Part shown: in pieces, positions 9,509-15,810 of the stretch | Position numbering within the stretch: the first letter of the stretch is position 1 | Layout: each line of letters opens with the position of its first letter | Assembly (NCBI RefSeq): GCF_055900595.2 | Contig: NZ_CM148325.1 | Length of the DNA stretch: 64,000 bases | Strand: one strand, 5' to 3' | Program-made: the position numbers and the translations under genes | Notes under the pieces: generated by a model | The model's database searches: none | What the model was told of the DNA's origin: nothing | The model's input: the letters and a program-made list of their open reading frames with translations, nothing else

Positions 9509-9706
9509 ATGCATGCGACCACAGTGAAAAACAAAATCACGCAAAGAGACAACTATAAAGAAATCATGTCTGTAATTGTGGTTGTCTTATTACTGACACT
9601 TACGTTGATAGCCATTTTTTCGGCAATTGATCAGCTGGGTATTACAGAAATGGGTCGCATTGCAAGAGATCTTACACATTTCATTATCAATAGTTTGCAA
9701 GACTGA
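9509..9706 (+). CDS. safA: Small membrane protein SafA, two-component system connector
   Basis: 65 aa ORF MHATTVKNKITQRDNYKEIMSVIVVVLLLTL… with one transmembrane segment; directly upstream of ydeO. Confidence 0.85.
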   Translation: MHATTVKNKITQRDNYKEIMSVIVVVLLLTLTLIAIFSAIDQLGITEMGRIARDLTHFIINSLQD

Positions 9707-9780: not shown

Positions 9781-10542
9781 ATGTCGCTCGTTTGTTCTGT
9801 TATATTTATTCATCATGCCTTCAACGCTAACATTTTAGATAAAGATTACGCCTTCTCTGACGGCGAGATCTTGATGGTAGATAACGCTGTTCGTACGCAT
9901 TTTGAACCTTATGAGCGGCATTTTAAAGAAATCGGATTTAATGAAAATACCATTAAAAAATATCTACAATGCACTAACATCCAGACAGTGACGGTGCCTG
10001 TTCCTGCGAAGTTTTTACGTGCTTCAAATGTACCGACTGGATTGCTTAATGAAATGATTGCTTATCTCAACTCGGAAGAACGCAATCATCATAATTTTTC
10101 AGAACTTTTGCTTTTTTCTTGCCTGTCTATTTTTGCCGCATGCAAAGGTTTCATTACACTATTAACTAACGGTGTGCTATCCGTATCAGGGAAAGTGAGA
10201 AACATTGTCAATATGAAGCTGGCACACCCATGGAAACTAAAAGATATTTGTGATTGCCTGTATATTAGTGAAAGCCTGCTGAAGAAAAAACTAAAGCAAG
10301 AGCAAACGACATTCTCACAAATTCTTTTAGATGCCAGAATGCAACACGCAAAAAATTTGATACGCGTAGAAGGTTCAGTCAATAAAATTGCCGAAAAATG
10401 TGGTTATGCCAGTACATCTTATTTTATTTATGCTTTCCGCAAACATTTCGGCAACAGTCCAAAGAGAGTTTCAAAGGAGTACCGTTGTCAAAGGCACACG
10501 AATATGAACACGGGCAACACGATGAATGCTTTGGCTAATTGA
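9781..10542 (+). CDS. ydeO: AraC-family acid-resistance transcriptional regulator
   Basis: 253 aa ORF with C-terminal AraC-type helix-turn-helix (…KIAEKCGYASTSYFIYAFRKHFG…); AT-rich gene. Confidence 0.9.
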   Translation: MSLVCSVIFIHHAFNANILDKDYAFSDGEILMVDNAVRTHFEPYERHFKEIGFNENTIKKYLQCTNIQTVTVPVPAKFLRASNVPTGLLNEMIAYLNSEERNHHNFSELLLFSCLSIFAACKGFITLLTNGVLSVSGKVRNIVNMKLAHPWKLKDICDCLYISESLLKKKLKQEQTTFSQILLDARMQHAKNLIRVEGSVNKIAEKCGYASTSYFIYAFRKHFGNSPKRVSKEYRCQRHTNMNTGNTMNALAN

Positions 10543-10589
10543 TTATTCGCTCACGTATAGTCAACTACAAACGCTAAGTAAGAATTAAA

Positions 10590-10610
10590 GGGGCAGCTAT
10601 TACCTGCCCC
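10590..10610 (+). terminator. Hairpin after ydeO, possible terminator
   Basis: GGGGCAG-ctattac-CTGCCCC stem-loop; the U-tract is on the opposite-strand side, so function is uncertain. Confidence 0.35.
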
Positions 10611-10942
10611 AATCTGTCGTTACGAATTGTATTTCATGATGAGAATTAGTGATATACATCACAAATTTATGCATCTGAATAATCTGTTTCATATTTATTT
10701 ATGATCTCAATGCAATGAATTACAAAAAAAACACATAATACCATTTAATTTCAATCATTTAGTTATTTGGCATTGTGAATTTACCTAGCTCAACAGAAAG
10801 CAATGTCAACGCGTTATGGACTATTATTTCTCTTTTTTTAGCCAAATCTGCTATCTCTTTATGTGACTCACTTCACTTACATCATCTTATTTCTCTTCGT
10901 AAAATTACTTTGGAATTAAGTACAATAAGAAGAGGAACATTT

Positions 10943-12625
10943 ATGAAGTCTGCATTGAAGAAAAGTGTCGTAAGTACCTCGATATCTTTGATACTGGCAT
11001 CTGGTATGGCTGCATTTACCGCTCATGCGGCAGATGATGTAAAGCTGAAAGCAACTAAAACAAACGTTGCTTTCTCAGACTTTACGCCGACTGAATACAG
11101 CACTAAAGGAAAGCCAAATATCATCGTACTGACCATGGATGATCTGGGTTATGGACAACTTCCTTTTGATAAGGGTTCTTTTGACCCAAAAACAATGGAA
11201 AATCGTGAAGTTGTCGATACCTACAAAATAGGGATAGATAAAGCCATTGAAGCTGCATCAAAATCGACGCCAACACTGCTTTCGTTAATGGATGAAGGTG
11301 TACGTTTTACTAACGGCTATGTGGCGCACGGGGTTTCCGGTCCCTCCCGCGCCGCAATAATGACCGGTCGAGCGCCCGCTCGTTTTGGTGTGTACTCCAA
11401 TACTGATGCTCAGGATGGTATTCCGCTGACAGAAACTTTCTTGCCTGAATTATTCCAGAATCATGGTTATTACACTGCAGCAGTAGGTAAATGGCACTTG
11501 TCAAAAATCAGTAATGTGCCAGTACCGGAAGATAAACAAACGCGTGACTATCATGACAACTTCACCACATTTTCTGCGGAAGAATGGCAACCTCAAAACC
11601 GTGGCTTTGATTACTTTATGGGATTCCACGCTGCAGGAACGGCATATTACAACTCCCCTTCACTGTTCAAAAACCGTGAACGCGTCCCCGCAAAAGGTTA
11701 TATCAGCGATCAGTTAACCGATGAGGCAATTGGTGTTGTTGATCGTGCTAAAACACTTGACCAGCCTTTTATGCTTTACCTTGCTTATAATGCTCCGCAT
11801 CTGCCAAATGATAATCCTGCACCGGAGCAATATCAGAAGCAATTTAATACCGGTAGTCAAACAGCAGATAACTACTACGCTTCCGTTTATTCTGTTGATC
11901 AGGGTGTAAAACGCATTCTCGAACAACTAAAGAAAAACGGACAGTATGACAATACAATTATTCTATTTACCTCCGATAATGGTGCAGTTATCGATGGTCC
12001 TCTGCCGCTGAACGGAGCGCAAAAAGGCTATAAGAGCCAGACTTATCCTGGCGGTACCCATACACCAATGTTTATGTGGTGGAAAGGAAAACTTCAGCCC
12101 GGTAATTATGACAAGCTGATTTCCGCAATGGATTTCTACCCGACAGCTCTTGATGCAGCCGATATCAGCATTCCAAAAGAGTTAAAATTGGATGGTGTTT
12201 CATTGCTGCCCTGGTTGCAAGATAAGAAACAAGGTGAGCCACATAAAAATCTGACATGGATAACATCTTATTCTCACTGGTTTGATGAGGAAAATATTCC
12301 CTTCTGGGATAATTACCACAAATTTGTCCGCCATCAGTCAGACGATTACCCGCATAACCCCAACACCGAAGATTTAAGCCAATTCTCTTATACGGTGAGA
12401 AATAACGATTATTCGCTAGTCTATACAGTAGAAAACAATCAGTTAGGTCTATACAAACTGACAGATCTACAGCAAAAAGATAACCTTGCCGCTGCCAATC
12501 CGCAGGTCGTTAAAGAGATGCAAGGTGTGGTAAGAGAGTTTATCGACAACAGCCAGCCACCGCTTAGCGAGGTAAATCAGGCGAAGTTTAACAATATCAA
12601 GAAAGCACTAAGCGAAGCGAAATAA
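10943..12625 (+). CDS. ydeN: Secreted sulfatase (arylsulfatase family)
   Basis: ORF 10775-12625; start chosen at ATG 10943 (MKSALKKSVV… signal peptide). Sulfatase-type active-site region CSPSRAAIMTGR (Cys-type motif) present. Confidence 0.9.
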   Translation: MKSALKKSVVSTSISLILASGMAAFTAHAADDVKLKATKTNVAFSDFTPTEYSTKGKPNIIVLTMDDLGYGQLPFDKGSFDPKTMENREVVDTYKIGIDKAIEAASKSTPTLLSLMDEGVRFTNGYVAHGVSGPSRAAIMTGRAPARFGVYSNTDAQDGIPLTETFLPELFQNHGYYTAAVGKWHLSKISNVPVPEDKQTRDYHDNFTTFSAEEWQPQNRGFDYFMGFHAAGTAYYNSPSLFKNRERVPAKGYISDQLTDEAIGVVDRAKTLDQPFMLYLAYNAPHLPNDNPAPEQYQKQFNTGSQTADNYYASVYSVDQGVKRILEQLKKNGQYDNTIILFTSDNGAVIDGPLPLNGAQKGYKSQTYPGGTHTPMFMWWKGKLQPGNYDKLISAMDFYPTALDAADISIPKELKLDGVSLLPWLQDKKQGEPHKNLTWITSYSHWFDEENIPFWDNYHKFVRHQSDDYPHNPNTEDLSQFSYTVRNNDYSLVYTVENNQLGLYKLTDLQQKDNLAAANPQVVKEMQGVVREFIDNSQPPLSEVNQAKFNNIKKALSEAK

Positions 12626-12637
12626 CTAAACCTTCAT

Positions 12638-12662
12638 GCGGCGGATTTTTCCGCCGCCTTAT
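12638..12662 (+). terminator. Rho-independent terminator after ydeN
   Basis: GCGGCGG-attttt-CCGCCGC followed by CTTATT. Confidence 0.55.
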
Positions 12663-12676
12663 TGAGCGAGATAGCG

Positions 12677-13837
12677 ATGCACGTTACAGCCAAGCCCTCC
12701 AGTTTTCAATGTAATCTCAAATGTGATTACTGTTTTTACCTTGAAAAAGAGTCGCAGTTTACTCATGAAAAATGGATGGATGACAGCACTCTGAAAGAGT
12801 TCATCAAACAATATATCGCAGCGTCTGGCAATCAGGTCTATTTTACCTGGCAAGGCGGTGAACCCACTCTGGCTGGCCTGGATTTTTTCCGTAAAGTTAT
12901 TCACTATCAACAACGCTATGCAGGCCAAAAACGTATTTTTAATGCATTACAAACGAATGGCATTTTATTGAATAATGAATGGTGTGCCTTTCTCAAAGAA
13001 CATGAGTTTCTGGTTGGTATCTCGATCGATGGACCCCAGGAGCTACATGACTATTACAGACGCAGTAATTCAGGTAACGGTACTTTTGCAAAAGTGATAG
13101 CAGCCATCGAGCGTCTGAAATCATATCAAGTAGAGTTTAATACGTTAACCGTCATTAATAACGTTAATGTCCATTACCCTCTTGAGGTTTATCATTTTTT
13201 AAAATCTATCGGCAGTAAACATATGCAATTTATCGAATTGCTCGAAACCGGGACGCCGAATATTGATTTCAGTGGTCATAGTGAGAACACATTCCGTATC
13301 ATTGATTTTTCTGTGCCTCCTACGGCTTATGGCAAGTTTATGTCAACCATTTTTATGCAATGGGTTAAAAACGATGTGGGTGAAATTTTCATCCGTCAGT
13401 TTGAAAGCTTTGTCAGCCGTTTTTTGGGGAATGGGCATACCAGCTGTATTTTCCAGGAGTCCTGCAAGGATAATCTGGTTGTTGAAAGTAATGGAGACAT
13501 TTACGAATGCGACCATTTTGTCTATCCACAGTACAAAATTGGAAACATTAATAAATCTGAACTCAAAACGATGAATAGTGTTCAACTGACAGCGCAAAAA
13601 AAACGGATTTCAGCGAAATGTCAGCAATGTGCATATAAACCTATCTGCAATGGTGGTTGCCCTAAACATCGTATTACTAAAGTAAACAATGAAACTGTTT
13701 CCTATTTTTGCGAAGGTTATAAAATCCTTTTTTCAACCATGGTGCCTTATATGAACGCCATGGTGGAGTTAGCTAAGAACAGAGTTCCACTTTACCACAT
13801 TATGGATGTTGCAAAACAAATGGAGAATAATAAATAA
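12677..13837 (+). CDS. ydeM: Radical-SAM anaerobic sulfatase-maturating enzyme
   Basis: ORF 12662-13837; start at ATG 12677 ([19 protein letters not shown]…). CxxxCxxC radical-SAM motif near the N-terminus plus C-terminal Cys clusters; adjacent to the sulfatase. Confidence 0.9.
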
Positions 13838-13887
13838 CGCACTCTATTAGCTTCAGTCTTAGCCTCCTTCTTATGAACTTAACAAGG

Positions 13888-13917
13888 CACCCGACATAAC
13901 TTCCTGTCGGGTGTTTC
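13888..13917 (+). terminator. Rho-independent terminator after ydeM
   Basis: CACCCGACA-taacttcc-TGTCGGGTG followed by TTTCGTC. Confidence 0.6.
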
Positions 13918-14087
13918 GTCATCATCATCTTCCCGTGCGAAAATCCTGGCTTACGAGGTATGCGTCAGGGCATTAGCAATACTCTTGATTATCAATAGCG
14001 TAACCATAACCACTGAAAATGAAATATTTCTTTATATTTCATATTGTTAAATGATACTTAAATAAATTTCATCAGTATATCATTGCC

Positions 14088-14139
14088 ATAGATAATCATT
14101 GGATGGCACAATCAATTTTCGCTAATGATAACCATTCCC
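14088..14139 (+). promoter_or_regulatory. Fur-box-like hexamer array at the yddA start
   Basis: GATAATCATTGG…GCTAATGATAACCATTCCC; the 19-mer at 14121-14139 matches the Fur consensus GATAATGATAATCATTATC at 15 of 19 positions by my count and overlaps the predicted ATG. Confidence 0.4.
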
Positions 14140-15810
14140 ATTACGTTTTGTATGTTGATAGCAAAGTATCTCTGTCTGCTGAAGCCCTTTTGGCTGCGTA
14201 AGAATAATAAAACTTCAGTGTTGTTAATCATTATTATCCTCGCCATGATCCTTGGCGTGGTTAAAATTCAGGTCTGGTTAAACGACTGGAATAATGATTT
14301 TTTCAATGCGCTAAGCCAGAAAGAAACTGATAAGCTTTGGCAGCTTGTCCTTTGGTTCCCTGCCCTGCTGGGGATCTTTGTATTAATATCCGTAAACAAA
14401 ACATGGTTAATTAAACTACTGACTATTCGCTGGCGCGAATGGTTAACAGATTACTACCTTAATCGCTGGTTTGCAGATAAAAACTACTATTTCACGCAGA
14501 TCTACGGCGAGCATAAAAATACAGATAACCCTGACCAACGTATCGCTGAAGACATTCTCTTACTGATCAGCAAAACGCTCAGCCTTTCATTTGGCTTCAT
14601 CCAGTCACTTAGCATGCTGATCACCTTTACCGTTATTCTTTGGCAAAGCGCGGGTACGCTCTCATTCACTGTTGGTGGAACTGAATGGAGTATCCCGGGG
14701 TATATGGTCTATACCGTCGTGCTCATTGTGATCGGTGGAACTTTATTTACCCATAAGGTTGGTAAACGTATTCGTCCGCTTAATGTGGAAAAACAACGTA
14801 GCGAAGCGACATTTCGAACTAATCTTGTACAGCATAATAAGCAGGCAGAACTGATTGCGCTAAGCAATGCTGAGTCTCTACAACGCCAGGAGTTGAGCGA
14901 AAATTTTCATACCATTAAAGAGAACTGGCATCGTTTAATGAATCGTCAGCGGTGGCTTGATTACTGGCAGAATATTTATTCGCGCTCGCTTAGCGTTCTT
15001 CCCTACTTTCTGTTATTGCCGCAGTTTATTAGCGGACAGATCAATCTGGGCGGACTGATGAAATCACGCCAGGCATTTATGCTGGTATCGAACAATTTAA
15101 GCTGGTTTATTTATAAATATGATGAACTTGCTGAACTGGCTGCGGTTATCGATCGCTTGTATGAGTTCCATCAACTCACCGAACAGCGCCCTACGAATAA
15201 GCCTAAAAATTGCCAACATGCGGTACAAGTGGCTGACGCGAGTATTCGTACTCCTGATAATAAGATCATATTAGAGAACCTGAACTTTCATGTTTCGCCA
15301 GGCAAATGGCTATTACTGAAAGGTTACTCTGGTGCGGGAAAAACCACACTGCTTAAAACATTATCCCACTGCTGGCCGTGGTTTAAAGGTGATATTTCGT
15401 CTCCTGCTGACAGTTGGTATGTGTCACAAACACCGTTAATCAAAAGCGGCTTACTGAAAGAGATTATTTGTAAAGCACTTCCTCTGCCCGTAGACGATAA
15501 ATCGTTGAGCGAAGTACTGCATCAGGTTGGTCTGGGGAAATTGGCTGCGCGTATTCATGACCACGATCGCTGGGGAGATATTCTTTCCAGCGGCGAAAAA
15601 CAACGTATCGCCCTGGCACGATTAATTTTACGACGTCCGAAATGGATATTTCTTGACGAAACTACCTCTCATCTTGAGGAACAAGAGGCTATCCGCTTAC
15701 TGCGTTTAGTGCGTGAAAAACTACCCACAAGCGGCGTCATTATGGTTACACATCAACCCGGTGTCTGGAACCTGGCCGATGATATTTGTGACATTAGCGC
15801 GGTTTTATAA
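14125..15810 (+). CDS. yddA: ABC transporter, fused permease and ATPase
   Basis: 561 aa ORF; N-terminal transmembrane region and C-terminal ABC domain with Walker A GYSGAGKTT and signature SSGEKQR. Confidence 0.9.
   Translation: MITIPITFCMLIAKYLCLLKPFWLRKNNKTSVLLIIIILAMILGVVKIQVWLNDWNNDFFNALSQKETDKLWQLVLWFPALLGIFVLISVNKTWLIKLLTIRWREWLTDYYLNRWFADKNYYFTQIYGEHKNTDNPDQRIAEDILLLISKTLSLSFGFIQSLSMLITFTVILWQSAGTLSFTVGGTEWSIPGYMVYTVVLIVIGGTLFTHKVGKRIRPLNVEKQRSEATFRTNLVQHNKQAELIALSNAESLQRQELSENFHTIKENWHRLMNRQRWLDYWQNIYSRSLSVLPYFLLLPQFISGQINLGGLMKSRQAFMLVSNNLSWFIYKYDELAELAAVIDRLYEFHQLTEQRPTNKPKNCQHAVQVADASIRTPDNKIILENLNFHVSPGKWLLLKGYSGAGKTTLLKTLSHCWPWFKGDISSPADSWYVSQTPLIKSGLLKEIICKALPLPVDDKSLSEVLHQVGLGKLAARIHDHDRWGDILSSGEKQRIALARLILRRPKWIFLDETTSHLEEQEAIRLLRLVREKLPTSGVIMVTHQPGVWNLADDICDISAVL

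Follow-up and report, generated by a model that had tools for sequence, protein, structure and literature searches.

The closest functional paradigm for the locus described here is the AtsA/AtsB system of Klebsiella pneumoniae, in which the gene for a periplasmic Ser-type S1 (formylglycine-dependent) sulfatase lies beside that for an anaerobic sulfatase-maturating enzyme (anSME) of the radical S-adenosylmethionine (radical-SAM)/SPASM type; in Klebsiella, atsB precedes atsA. anSMEs can act on Cys- and Ser-type substrates alike, the natural client of the Clostridium perfringens enzyme anSMEcpe being a Cys-type sulfatase. Oxygen-dependent systems of the formylglycine-generating enzyme (FGE) type are not known to mature Ser-type sulfatases, which need an AtsB/anSME-type enzyme. 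Escherichia coli has a second putative sulfatase with an anSME homolog, AslA/AslB, of which AslA is Cys-type; one earlier study (Benjdia et al. 2007) reportedly deleted aslB and ydeM together. We analysed a 64,000-nt stretch of E. coli DNA (contig NZ_CM148325.1, assembly GCF_055900595.2; hereafter the window) and conclude, with a probability of about 0.85, that positions 10943-13837 hold the E. coli ydeN-ydeM operon, which would encode a periplasmic Ser-type sulfatase and its dedicated anaerobic maturase, with the mechanism and regulation proposed below. The pair is already known, annotated and discussed (Benjdia et al. 2007; Stringer et al. 2014; EcoCyc-type annotation). Added here are the reassignment of YdeN from the Cys to the Ser type, evidence that both genes are strongly constrained, the mobility of the cassette, a conserved intercistronic hairpin, the regulatory separation of ydeN from ydeO, and a substrate lead. 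The two genes and their main elements are as follows.

10943-12625, plus strand: ydeN, predicted precursor of a periplasmic Ser-type S1 sulfatase, 560 aa (PF00884; annotation by the Prokaryotic Genome Annotation Pipeline (PGAP) and in K-12).
10943-11029, plus strand: predicted Sec signal peptide, residues 1-29, with a cleavage site placed between AHA and AD from sequence features.
11336-11350, plus strand: sulfatase signature S-G-P-S-R, read directly from the sequence; Ser132 is predicted to become formylglycine.
12677-13837, plus strand: ydeM, predicted anSME (radical SAM plus SPASM), 386 aa (TIGR03942; alignment to PDB 4K36).
12710-12733, plus strand: radical-SAM motif C12-x3-C16-x2-C19 (CNLKCDYC), aligning to C15/C19/C22 of anSMEcpe.
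13445-13711, plus strand: SPASM region with eight auxiliary-cluster Cys and D279, from residue-by-residue alignment to 4K36.

A RefSeq genome 99.9% identical to the window names the genes ydeN and ydeM, as does K-12 MG1655, and the locus is found in 5374/5426 complete E. coli genomes. It lies directly downstream of safA (9509-9706) and ydeO (9781-10542), and is followed by yddA-yddB-pqqL. A first, sequence-only reading of this DNA had proposed a secreted sulfatase and a radical-SAM maturase at these positions, which the open reading frames (ORFs), the Pfam and NCBIfam matches and the existing annotation bear out; the spacer between the ydeN stop codon and the ydeM ATG, given there as 52 nt, measures 51 nt. 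The ydeN ATG is preceded by a GAGG ribosome-binding site at 7-nt spacing. Extension of ydeN to a GTG at 10775 (616 aa) was rejected, since the ribosome-binding site, the start of the signal peptide, PGAP and K-12 all favour the ATG at 10943. A TTG start for ydeM at 12662, 5 nt past the 3' arm of the intercistronic hairpin, was likewise rejected because the family profile begins at residue 2 of the ATG form; K-12 and PGAP also use this ATG.

Relative to K-12, ydeN has a ratio of non-synonymous to synonymous divergence (dN/dS) of 0.032 at dS 0.19, with six amino-acid changes, and ydeM a ratio of 0.041 at dS 0.08, with two. Both genes are under strong purifying selection.

The signature of YdeN reads AHGV-SGPSR-AAIMTGR, which places Ser132 (codon TCC, 11336-11338) at the formylglycine position. 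The sequence-only reading had assigned a Cys-type motif, CSPSRAAIMTGR; this motif is absent from the sequence, Ser standing where its Cys would be. K-12 also has Ser there, so that no substitution has occurred at this position. SGPSR is present in 120/120 close orthologs among the matches listed in a protein search, and in 15/15 further loci from a scan of one genome per species, including Fusobacterium homologs at 54-55% identity. Outside the YdeN clade, identity falls abruptly to at most 45%, and the position is held by Cys in 103 proteins versus Ser in about six. Ser132 thus marks YdeN, as read from its sequence, as a Ser-type sulfatase; this state is the rarer one and sets its clade apart. 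The dependence of such sulfatases on an anSME would in turn explain the linked maturase.

Other properties of YdeN conform to the S1 family. The protein matches PF00884 over the full profile (1-301) with 238.7 bits against a cut-off of 25 (E 1.2e-70), and the S1 signature (C/S)-x-P-x-R followed by xxxxTG appears as S132-G-P-S-R136-AAIM-TG. In a 78-sequence alignment D66, D67, R136, H185, D345 and K364 are invariant, and K183, H286 and N346 are at least 90% conserved. Its AlphaFold (AF2) model has a mean predicted local distance difference test score (pLDDT) of 92 and a predicted template modelling score of 0.90, with disorder confined to the signal peptide and a short linker. A fold search with this model returned 400 PDB matches at E<=0.001, and the best 50 of the 400 are all S1 sulfatase structures. 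The N terminus (MKSALKK...AFTAHA/AD) lacks a twin arginine and runs from a Lys-rich n-region through a hydrophobic core to an AHA motif; residues 1-28 have pLDDT below 50, and YdeN is listed as periplasmic in PMC10746267.

YdeM satisfies every anSME criterion that can be tested on a sequence. It scores 503.7 bits against TIGR03942, where the curated equivalog cut-off is 349.45, over positions 1-362 of the 363-position profile, and aligns with anSMEcpe (PDB 4K36) over residues 4-359 at E 3e-63. The CxxxCxxC motif and further Cys clusters noticed at first reading are indeed there, as C12/C16/C19 and a group of Cys towards the C terminus; QGGEPT (residues 59-64) supplies the GGE motif for SAM binding. 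C257/C263/C278/C328 and C315/C318/C324/C345 align with the two sets of auxiliary [4Fe-4S] ligands, and D279 with the catalytic D277 of anSMEcpe; the roles of these anSMEcpe residues are those reported for its published structure (Goldman et al. 2013). Among the 12 cysteines of YdeM, only C103 is not a predicted ligand, and the 11 cluster cysteines are all kept. A phage-resistant K-12 mutant was found to carry a spontaneous ydeM mutation, C345F, as a passenger (PMC7260982). As C345 (codon 13709-13711) aligns with an auxiliary-cluster ligand of anSMEcpe, the change would probably inactivate YdeM.

The comparison with described systems brings out both the kinship and the peculiarities of the pair. 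As in AtsA/AtsB, a periplasmic Ser-type S1 sulfatase gene adjoins a radical-SAM/SPASM anSME gene, and conversion of Ser to formylglycine would, by analogy, be expected before Sec export. The E. coli order is reversed, however, with the sulfatase first and a hairpin before the maturase. Moreover, the nearest relatives of YdeN are carbohydrate sulfatases rather than AtsA-type arylsulfatases, and the activity of YdeN is predicted only. YdeM shares CxxxCxxC, the eight auxiliary Cys and the catalytic Asp with anSMEcpe (PDB 4K36-4K39), and both pass TIGR03942; whereas anSMEcpe serves a Cys-type client, the adjacent client of YdeM is Ser-type, and its role is a predicted one. The AslA/AslB pair in the same genome is set apart in two ways. 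YdeM scores 359 bits against NF010308 (PRK13745, 412 aa), presumably the AslB-type model, below its cut-off of 484; and AslA is Cys-type whereas YdeN is Ser-type.

The two genes travel together. The maturase gene lies directly 3' of a Ser-type sulfatase gene, on the same strand, in 23/23 loci checked beyond the window and K-12, at 54-99% identity. These come from Yersinia pestis, Aeromonas veronii, a Salmonella integrative element, a Proteus-type mobile element, Anaerobiospirillum and Iodobacter, and further from E. albertii, another Escherichia, Leminorella, Citrobacter, Cedecea, Mixta, Grimontia, Psychromonas, three Anaerobiospirillum and three Fusobacterium. The flanks in the examined loci are unrelated housekeeping or mobile-element genes, which supports the description of the pair as self-contained in the sequence-only reading. 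When 15 additional genomes were scanned for conserved neighbours of the cassette, using marker proteins and Pfam, only unrelated housekeeping genes were returned, and the idea of such neighbours was rejected. Since the cassette is self-contained and its flanks unrelated, its context is uninformative on substrate.

Horizontal spread of the cassette extends to resistance plasmids from livestock. On an IncFIB plasmid from swine E. coli (NZ_CP046008.1, 1-9980), a chromosomal-type ydeN-ydeM-yneP lies between IS26 and ISVsa5, beside the thiosulfate reductase genes phsABC, and a conjugative Proteus plasmid also bears a sulfatase-maturase pair. Conjugative E. coli IncF plasmids from human, pig and sheep (NZ_CP024151.1, 5769-8698, and others) carry an OmpC/PhoE-family porin gene upstream of a Ser-type YdeN paralog of 78% identity. 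This paralog is an exception to the linkage: tblastn found no maturase near it, and the small ORFs downstream are for the same reason not maturase fragments. Presumably it relies on the chromosomal maturase in trans. In A. veronii, too, a general porin is encoded upstream of the sulfatase. The porin linkage was treated as weak or coincidental, because the A. veronii and plasmid porins are only 32% identical and a porin is absent from the other contexts.

The small gene yneP accompanies ydeNM on plasmid p1919D62-2. The 99% allele of the swine IncFIB plasmid is shared by several further plasmid records, about 100-385 kb in size. A 13-kb contig binned as a Candidatus Nanosynbacter (Patescibacteria) metagenome-assembled genome also carries both genes, 99% identical to those of the window; this is almost certainly a mis-binned E. 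coli contig.

Three hairpins lie in and around the pair, all characterised by folding.

10590-10610, plus strand: hairpin after ydeO, bounding the unit upstream, GGGGCAG-N7-CTGCCCC; z = -2.3.
12638-12657, plus strand: intercistronic GC-rich hairpin, GCGGCGGA-TTTT-TCCGCCGC, then a weak T-tract, CTTATTG.
13885-13916, plus strand: terminator-like hairpin after ydeM, core CACCCGACA/TGTCGGGTG, then TTTCGTC.

The intercistronic hairpin has a folding energy of -18.7 kcal/mol (z = -3.1), with one of 200 shuffles equally stable, and the 51-nt spacer that holds it is 100% identical to that of K-12. A GC-rich hairpin recurs in the sulfatase-maturase spacer of 7/7 genera checked, its sequence differing between lineages; besides E. 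coli, these lineages are Yersinia, Aeromonas, Salmonella, the Proteus-type element, Iodobacter and Anaerobiospirillum. The shuffle test covered the first five of these six, with z-scores of -3.1 in Yersinia, -5.1 in Aeromonas, -1.4 in Salmonella, -3.0 in the Proteus-type element and -4.2 in Iodobacter. Conservation of structure without conservation of sequence suggests that the hairpin has a function; it may terminate transcripts leakily or stabilise their 3' ends, and so keep the sulfatase message above the maturase message. The hairpin after ydeM (-21.1 kcal/mol, z = -5.3, 0/200 shuffles equally stable) is conserved in K-12. The hairpin after ydeO has, in the window allele, a T-run on the minus strand only. 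A consensus terminator scan of the plus strand called none of the three; for the hairpin after ydeM the weak T-tract accounts for this. The pair had been pictured as lying between two terminators; hairpins do stand at 10590-10610 and 13885-13916, but with poor T-tracts and no call on the plus strand, and that picture omits the equally strong hairpin inside the pair. An Rfam scan (10400-14300, E<=1) gave a single match, isrK, which was rejected as chance: its 20 bits fall short of the gathering score, 50.

Two sites upstream of ydeN bear on its transcription.

10648-10663, plus strand: CRP binding site, AGTGATATACATCACA, 287 nt before the ATG, with one mismatch to TGTGA-N6-TCACA.
10862-10877, plus strand: second, predicted CRP-like site, TGTGACTCACTTCACT, overlapping a promoter-like -35/-10 pair at 10876-10905.

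Nowhere else in the 64-kb window does the CRP consensus match with one mismatch or none. The half-sites of both are conserved in K-12, and the spacer of the 10648-10663 site differs. The orthologous K-12 and enterotoxigenic E. coli (ETEC) site, TGTGATGGATGTCACT, binds CRP in Footprint-seq, with a Kd of 1.8 nM in vitro (PMC12871828). CRP occupies the orthologous ETEC site in vivo by chromatin immunoprecipitation sequencing (PMC4287617), and ydeN is a CRP target in genomic systematic evolution of ligands by exponential enrichment (PMC3105977). The literature also describes repression of ydeNM by AraC with arabinose, and co-transcription of ydeN and ydeM. The AraC consensus TAGC-N7-TCCATA, allowing at most two mismatches, gave 45 matches against 50 expected, none of them in the ydeN promoter region. 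AraC is said to be bound upstream of ydeN only when arabinose is present. At pH 4.4 ydeN is among the most repressed genes (log2 -5.3, 40-fold), alongside malE, lamB, xylF and treC, and at neutral pH it is well translated (PMC10746267). The protein was detected by proteomics in O157 grown anaerobically in rumen fluid. In anaerobiosis, FD&C Red 40, a sulfonated aromatic dye, induced ydeN and no other gene, and a ydeN knockout left metabolism of the dye unchanged (PMC10653809).

Being CRP-bound, AraC-repressed and down at pH 4.4, ydeN behaves as a catabolite-controlled scavenging gene outside the acid response, adjacent to ydeO and not co-regulated with it. The pair had been introduced as sitting beside the EvgA-controlled ydeO; the adjacency is real, but the regulatory link that it hinted at does not fit a gene that is strongly down at pH 4.4 and under CRP and AraC control. 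The ydeO-ydeN spacer is 79% identical to that of K-12 overall, with a highly diverged distal part (10543-10780) and 170 nt beside ydeN that are nearly identical. The CRP half-sites are preserved within the diverged part.

A mechanism for the pair can be proposed by homology to Klebsiella AtsA/AtsB and anSMEcpe. In the cytoplasm, the radical-SAM [4Fe-4S] cluster of YdeM (C12/C16/C19) would cleave S-adenosylmethionine, and the resulting 5'-deoxyadenosyl radical would attack Ser132, within the SGPSR motif of the unfolded precursor, and remove a hydrogen from its C-beta. With D279 as base and the two auxiliary clusters as electron route, Ser132 would be oxidized to C-alpha-formylglycine. YdeN would then be exported by Sec, lose its signal peptide and fold around a divalent metal (D66, D67, D345, N346), its hydrated formylglycine hydrolysing a sulfate ester. 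Transcription is catabolite-controlled, with CRP bound upstream and AraC with arabinose repressing, outside the EvgA/YdeO acid response. The intercistronic hairpin probably ends or stabilises most transcripts after ydeN, which would yield much sulfatase and little maturase.

A lead on what YdeN desulfates comes from its relatives. Its best solved sequence relatives are S1_19 carrageenan galactose-4-sulfatases (E about 1e-51 over about 330 residues), and the best fold matches are again S1_19, with target-normalised template modelling scores of 0.80-0.83 and a structure-based identity of only 26-28%, followed by an S1_16 carrageenan sulfatase. All characterised S1_19 members remove D-galactose 4-sulfate (PMC9825549). 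The S1_19 enzymes PsS1_19A/B and ZgCgsA (PDB 6B0J, 6PSM, 9HH2) share with YdeN the motif context xGPSRxAIxTGR. They are, however, Cys-type (CGPSR), about 450-480 aa long and from marine carrageenan loci, whereas YdeN is Ser-type, 560 aa and encoded in a stand-alone pair; it also has additional helices at the C terminus and, following the DD metal motif, an insertion of about 27 residues (82-108).

The two nearest relatives outside the YdeN clade are Cys-type enzymes from chondroitin/dermatan-sulfate loci. One, from Plesiomonas shigelloides (P0122), is 42% identical over 495 residues, shares the insertion after the DD motif, and is encoded between a DUF2264 gene and an anSME gene whose product is 44% identical to YdeM. 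Its locus also encodes a near-identical ortholog of the chondroitin/dermatan-sulfate 4-O-endosulfatase 6J66 (E 2e-289), a KdgM porin, KdgK, a tagatose-bisphosphate aldolase, AgaS, KbaZ, a DeoR regulator and a sorbose-type phosphotransferase system. The other, a metagenomic protein (P0125) at 45% identity, is encoded between two PL8 lyase genes, one with a chondroitinase-ABC domain architecture. These enzymes sit within large catabolic loci, whereas the YdeN cassette is stand-alone in every case; the contexts of two other outgroup homologs told nothing about substrate. As an observation in its own right, the Plesiomonas locus (L018, 1-13348) looks like a full gene set for the use of chondroitin/dermatan-sulfate saccharides, here in an enterobacterium. 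We propose, as a tentative lead at well below even odds, that the substrate of YdeN is a small sulfated sugar of galacto configuration, able to pass porins, such as N-acetylgalactosamine (GalNAc)- or galactose (Gal)-sulfate saccharides derived from chondroitin or dermatan sulfate; its desulfated product would then enter ordinary sugar catabolism. The fuller picture is a little more doubtful again: YdeN as founder of a clade of Ser-type periplasmic exo-sulfatases, sister to the Cys-type chondroitin/dermatan-locus enzymes, that would desulfate GalNAc/Gal-sulfate saccharides from a mobile, hairpin-tuned cassette.

A number of points weigh against parts of this account. Among the papers examined we found no report of sulfatase activity of YdeN or of formylglycine made by YdeM. 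To our knowledge, E. coli K-12 is classically sulfatase-negative, and it leaves the Klebsiella Ser-type sulfatase unmatured unless AtsB is supplied, so that the chromosomal pair would be silent or insufficient in aerobic laboratory conditions. The terminator action of the hairpins is putative, given their weak U-tracts. As to substrate, no glycan-degrading or sugar-uptake genes were seen in about 25 cassette contexts. Our proposal is built on relatives at no more than 45% identity, where specificity often changes. Plesiomonas already has a separate 4-O-sulfatase ortholog, so that the sister enzyme may target another position, and an Akkermansia S1_19 sulfatase was inactive on the mucin substrates tested. 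The distance of the relatives, the separate Plesiomonas enzyme and the Akkermansia result are what keep the substrate proposal tentative.

Alternative accounts of the pair differ in how the sulfatase is matured, whether it works at all and what it acts on. That YdeN is a Cys-type enzyme (CSPSR) matured by YdeM might be entertained because anSMEs accept both types and most of its nearest homologs outside the clade are Cys-type, yet Ser (TCC, 11336-11338) in the window, in K-12 and in every ortholog examined refutes it, and we give it virtually no credence. A cryptic or decaying remnant, lacking present function in E. coli, would agree with the want of a known sulfatase phenotype in K-12 and with occasional insertion-sequence disruptions, such as that in strain XB2. 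The aslB/ydeM deletion study (Benjdia et al. 2007) reportedly concerned a third maturation system, which can be counted on the same side. Decay is nonetheless very improbable for genes with dN/dS of 0.03-0.04 at substantial dS and with all catalytic and cluster residues intact, kept in all but a few of the complete genomes, regulated and expressed, and repeatedly acquired on plasmids and mobile elements.

The competing proposals on substrate fare somewhat better. YdeN could be an arylsulfatase for aromatic or steroid sulfates of the gut (phenolic, indoxyl or bile-derived), serving sulfate scavenging or detoxification rather than carbon gain. The stand-alone cassette with no sugar-catabolic neighbours in about 25 contexts, the induction by a sulfonated aromatic (PMC10653809), phsABC adjoining the cassette on one plasmid, and steryl-sulfatase and arylsulfatase A among the PDB matches all speak for it. 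However, the nearest relatives in sequence and fold are carbohydrate sulfatases, the sister homologs sit in glycosaminoglycan loci, CRP and AraC control indicates a carbon-source hierarchy rather than sulfur starvation, and the ydeN knockout did not alter dye metabolism; on balance we regard an arylsulfatase as unlikely. Less probable again is a mucin N-acetylglucosamine-6-O-sulfatase, an idea raised from 33% similarity to Bacteroides BT4656 in PMC10878103, where ydeM rose with nagABE and galP in the mouse gut. BT4656 (5G2V) is distant, at E 1e-29 versus 1e-51 for S1_19, and ranks 45th among the fold matches.

The surroundings of the operon have a history of their own. The segment 3400-12600, which spans the ydeQRS fimbrial genes, ydeP, safA-ydeO and ydeN, is merely 83-96% identical to K-12; identity rises to 98.6-99% exactly at the ydeN/ydeM junction and holds through yddA. 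Only 8 of 5378 E. coli records carry the window allele at 99% identity or more. The segment from 3400 to about 12600 looks imported and divergent, with a recombination breakpoint at or near the intercistronic hairpin. Downstream, at 14125-15810 and further on, yddA encodes an SbmA/BacA-like ATP-binding cassette transporter and is followed by yddB (TonB-dependent receptor) and pqqL (M16 peptidase). A functional tie of the pair to yddA/yddB/pqqL or to ydeO was rejected, there being no co-occurrence outside Escherichia in the contexts examined; yddA/yddB/pqqL, absent beside the cassette in other genera, appear to be a separate unit. One small gene overlaps the operon.

13800-13928, minus strand: 42-aa ORF for the small protein YneP (b4747 of K-12), antisense to the 3' end of ydeM.

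This ORF overlaps the ydeM stop codon and encloses the whole of the terminator-like hairpin after ydeM.

YdeN and YdeM are among the few predicted E. coli enzyme pairs that are near-universally conserved while their function is still predicted only. The Ser-type status of YdeN changes how it should be assayed: the maturase should be co-expressed, preferably under anaerobic conditions, and the signal peptide of the precursor kept, as the E. coli Cys-type maturation system is not dependable for maturing a Ser-type YdeN. The comparative data narrow substrate screening to galacto-configured and glycosaminoglycan-derived sugar sulfates. Should the substrate lead hold, the pair would provide a route by which Enterobacteria that do not degrade glycans could use fragments of sulfated host glycans. 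If the fuller picture is true, E. coli, other gut and aquatic Gammaproteobacteria, and Fusobacteria would cross-feed on host- or diet-derived sulfated saccharides freed by other gut microbes.

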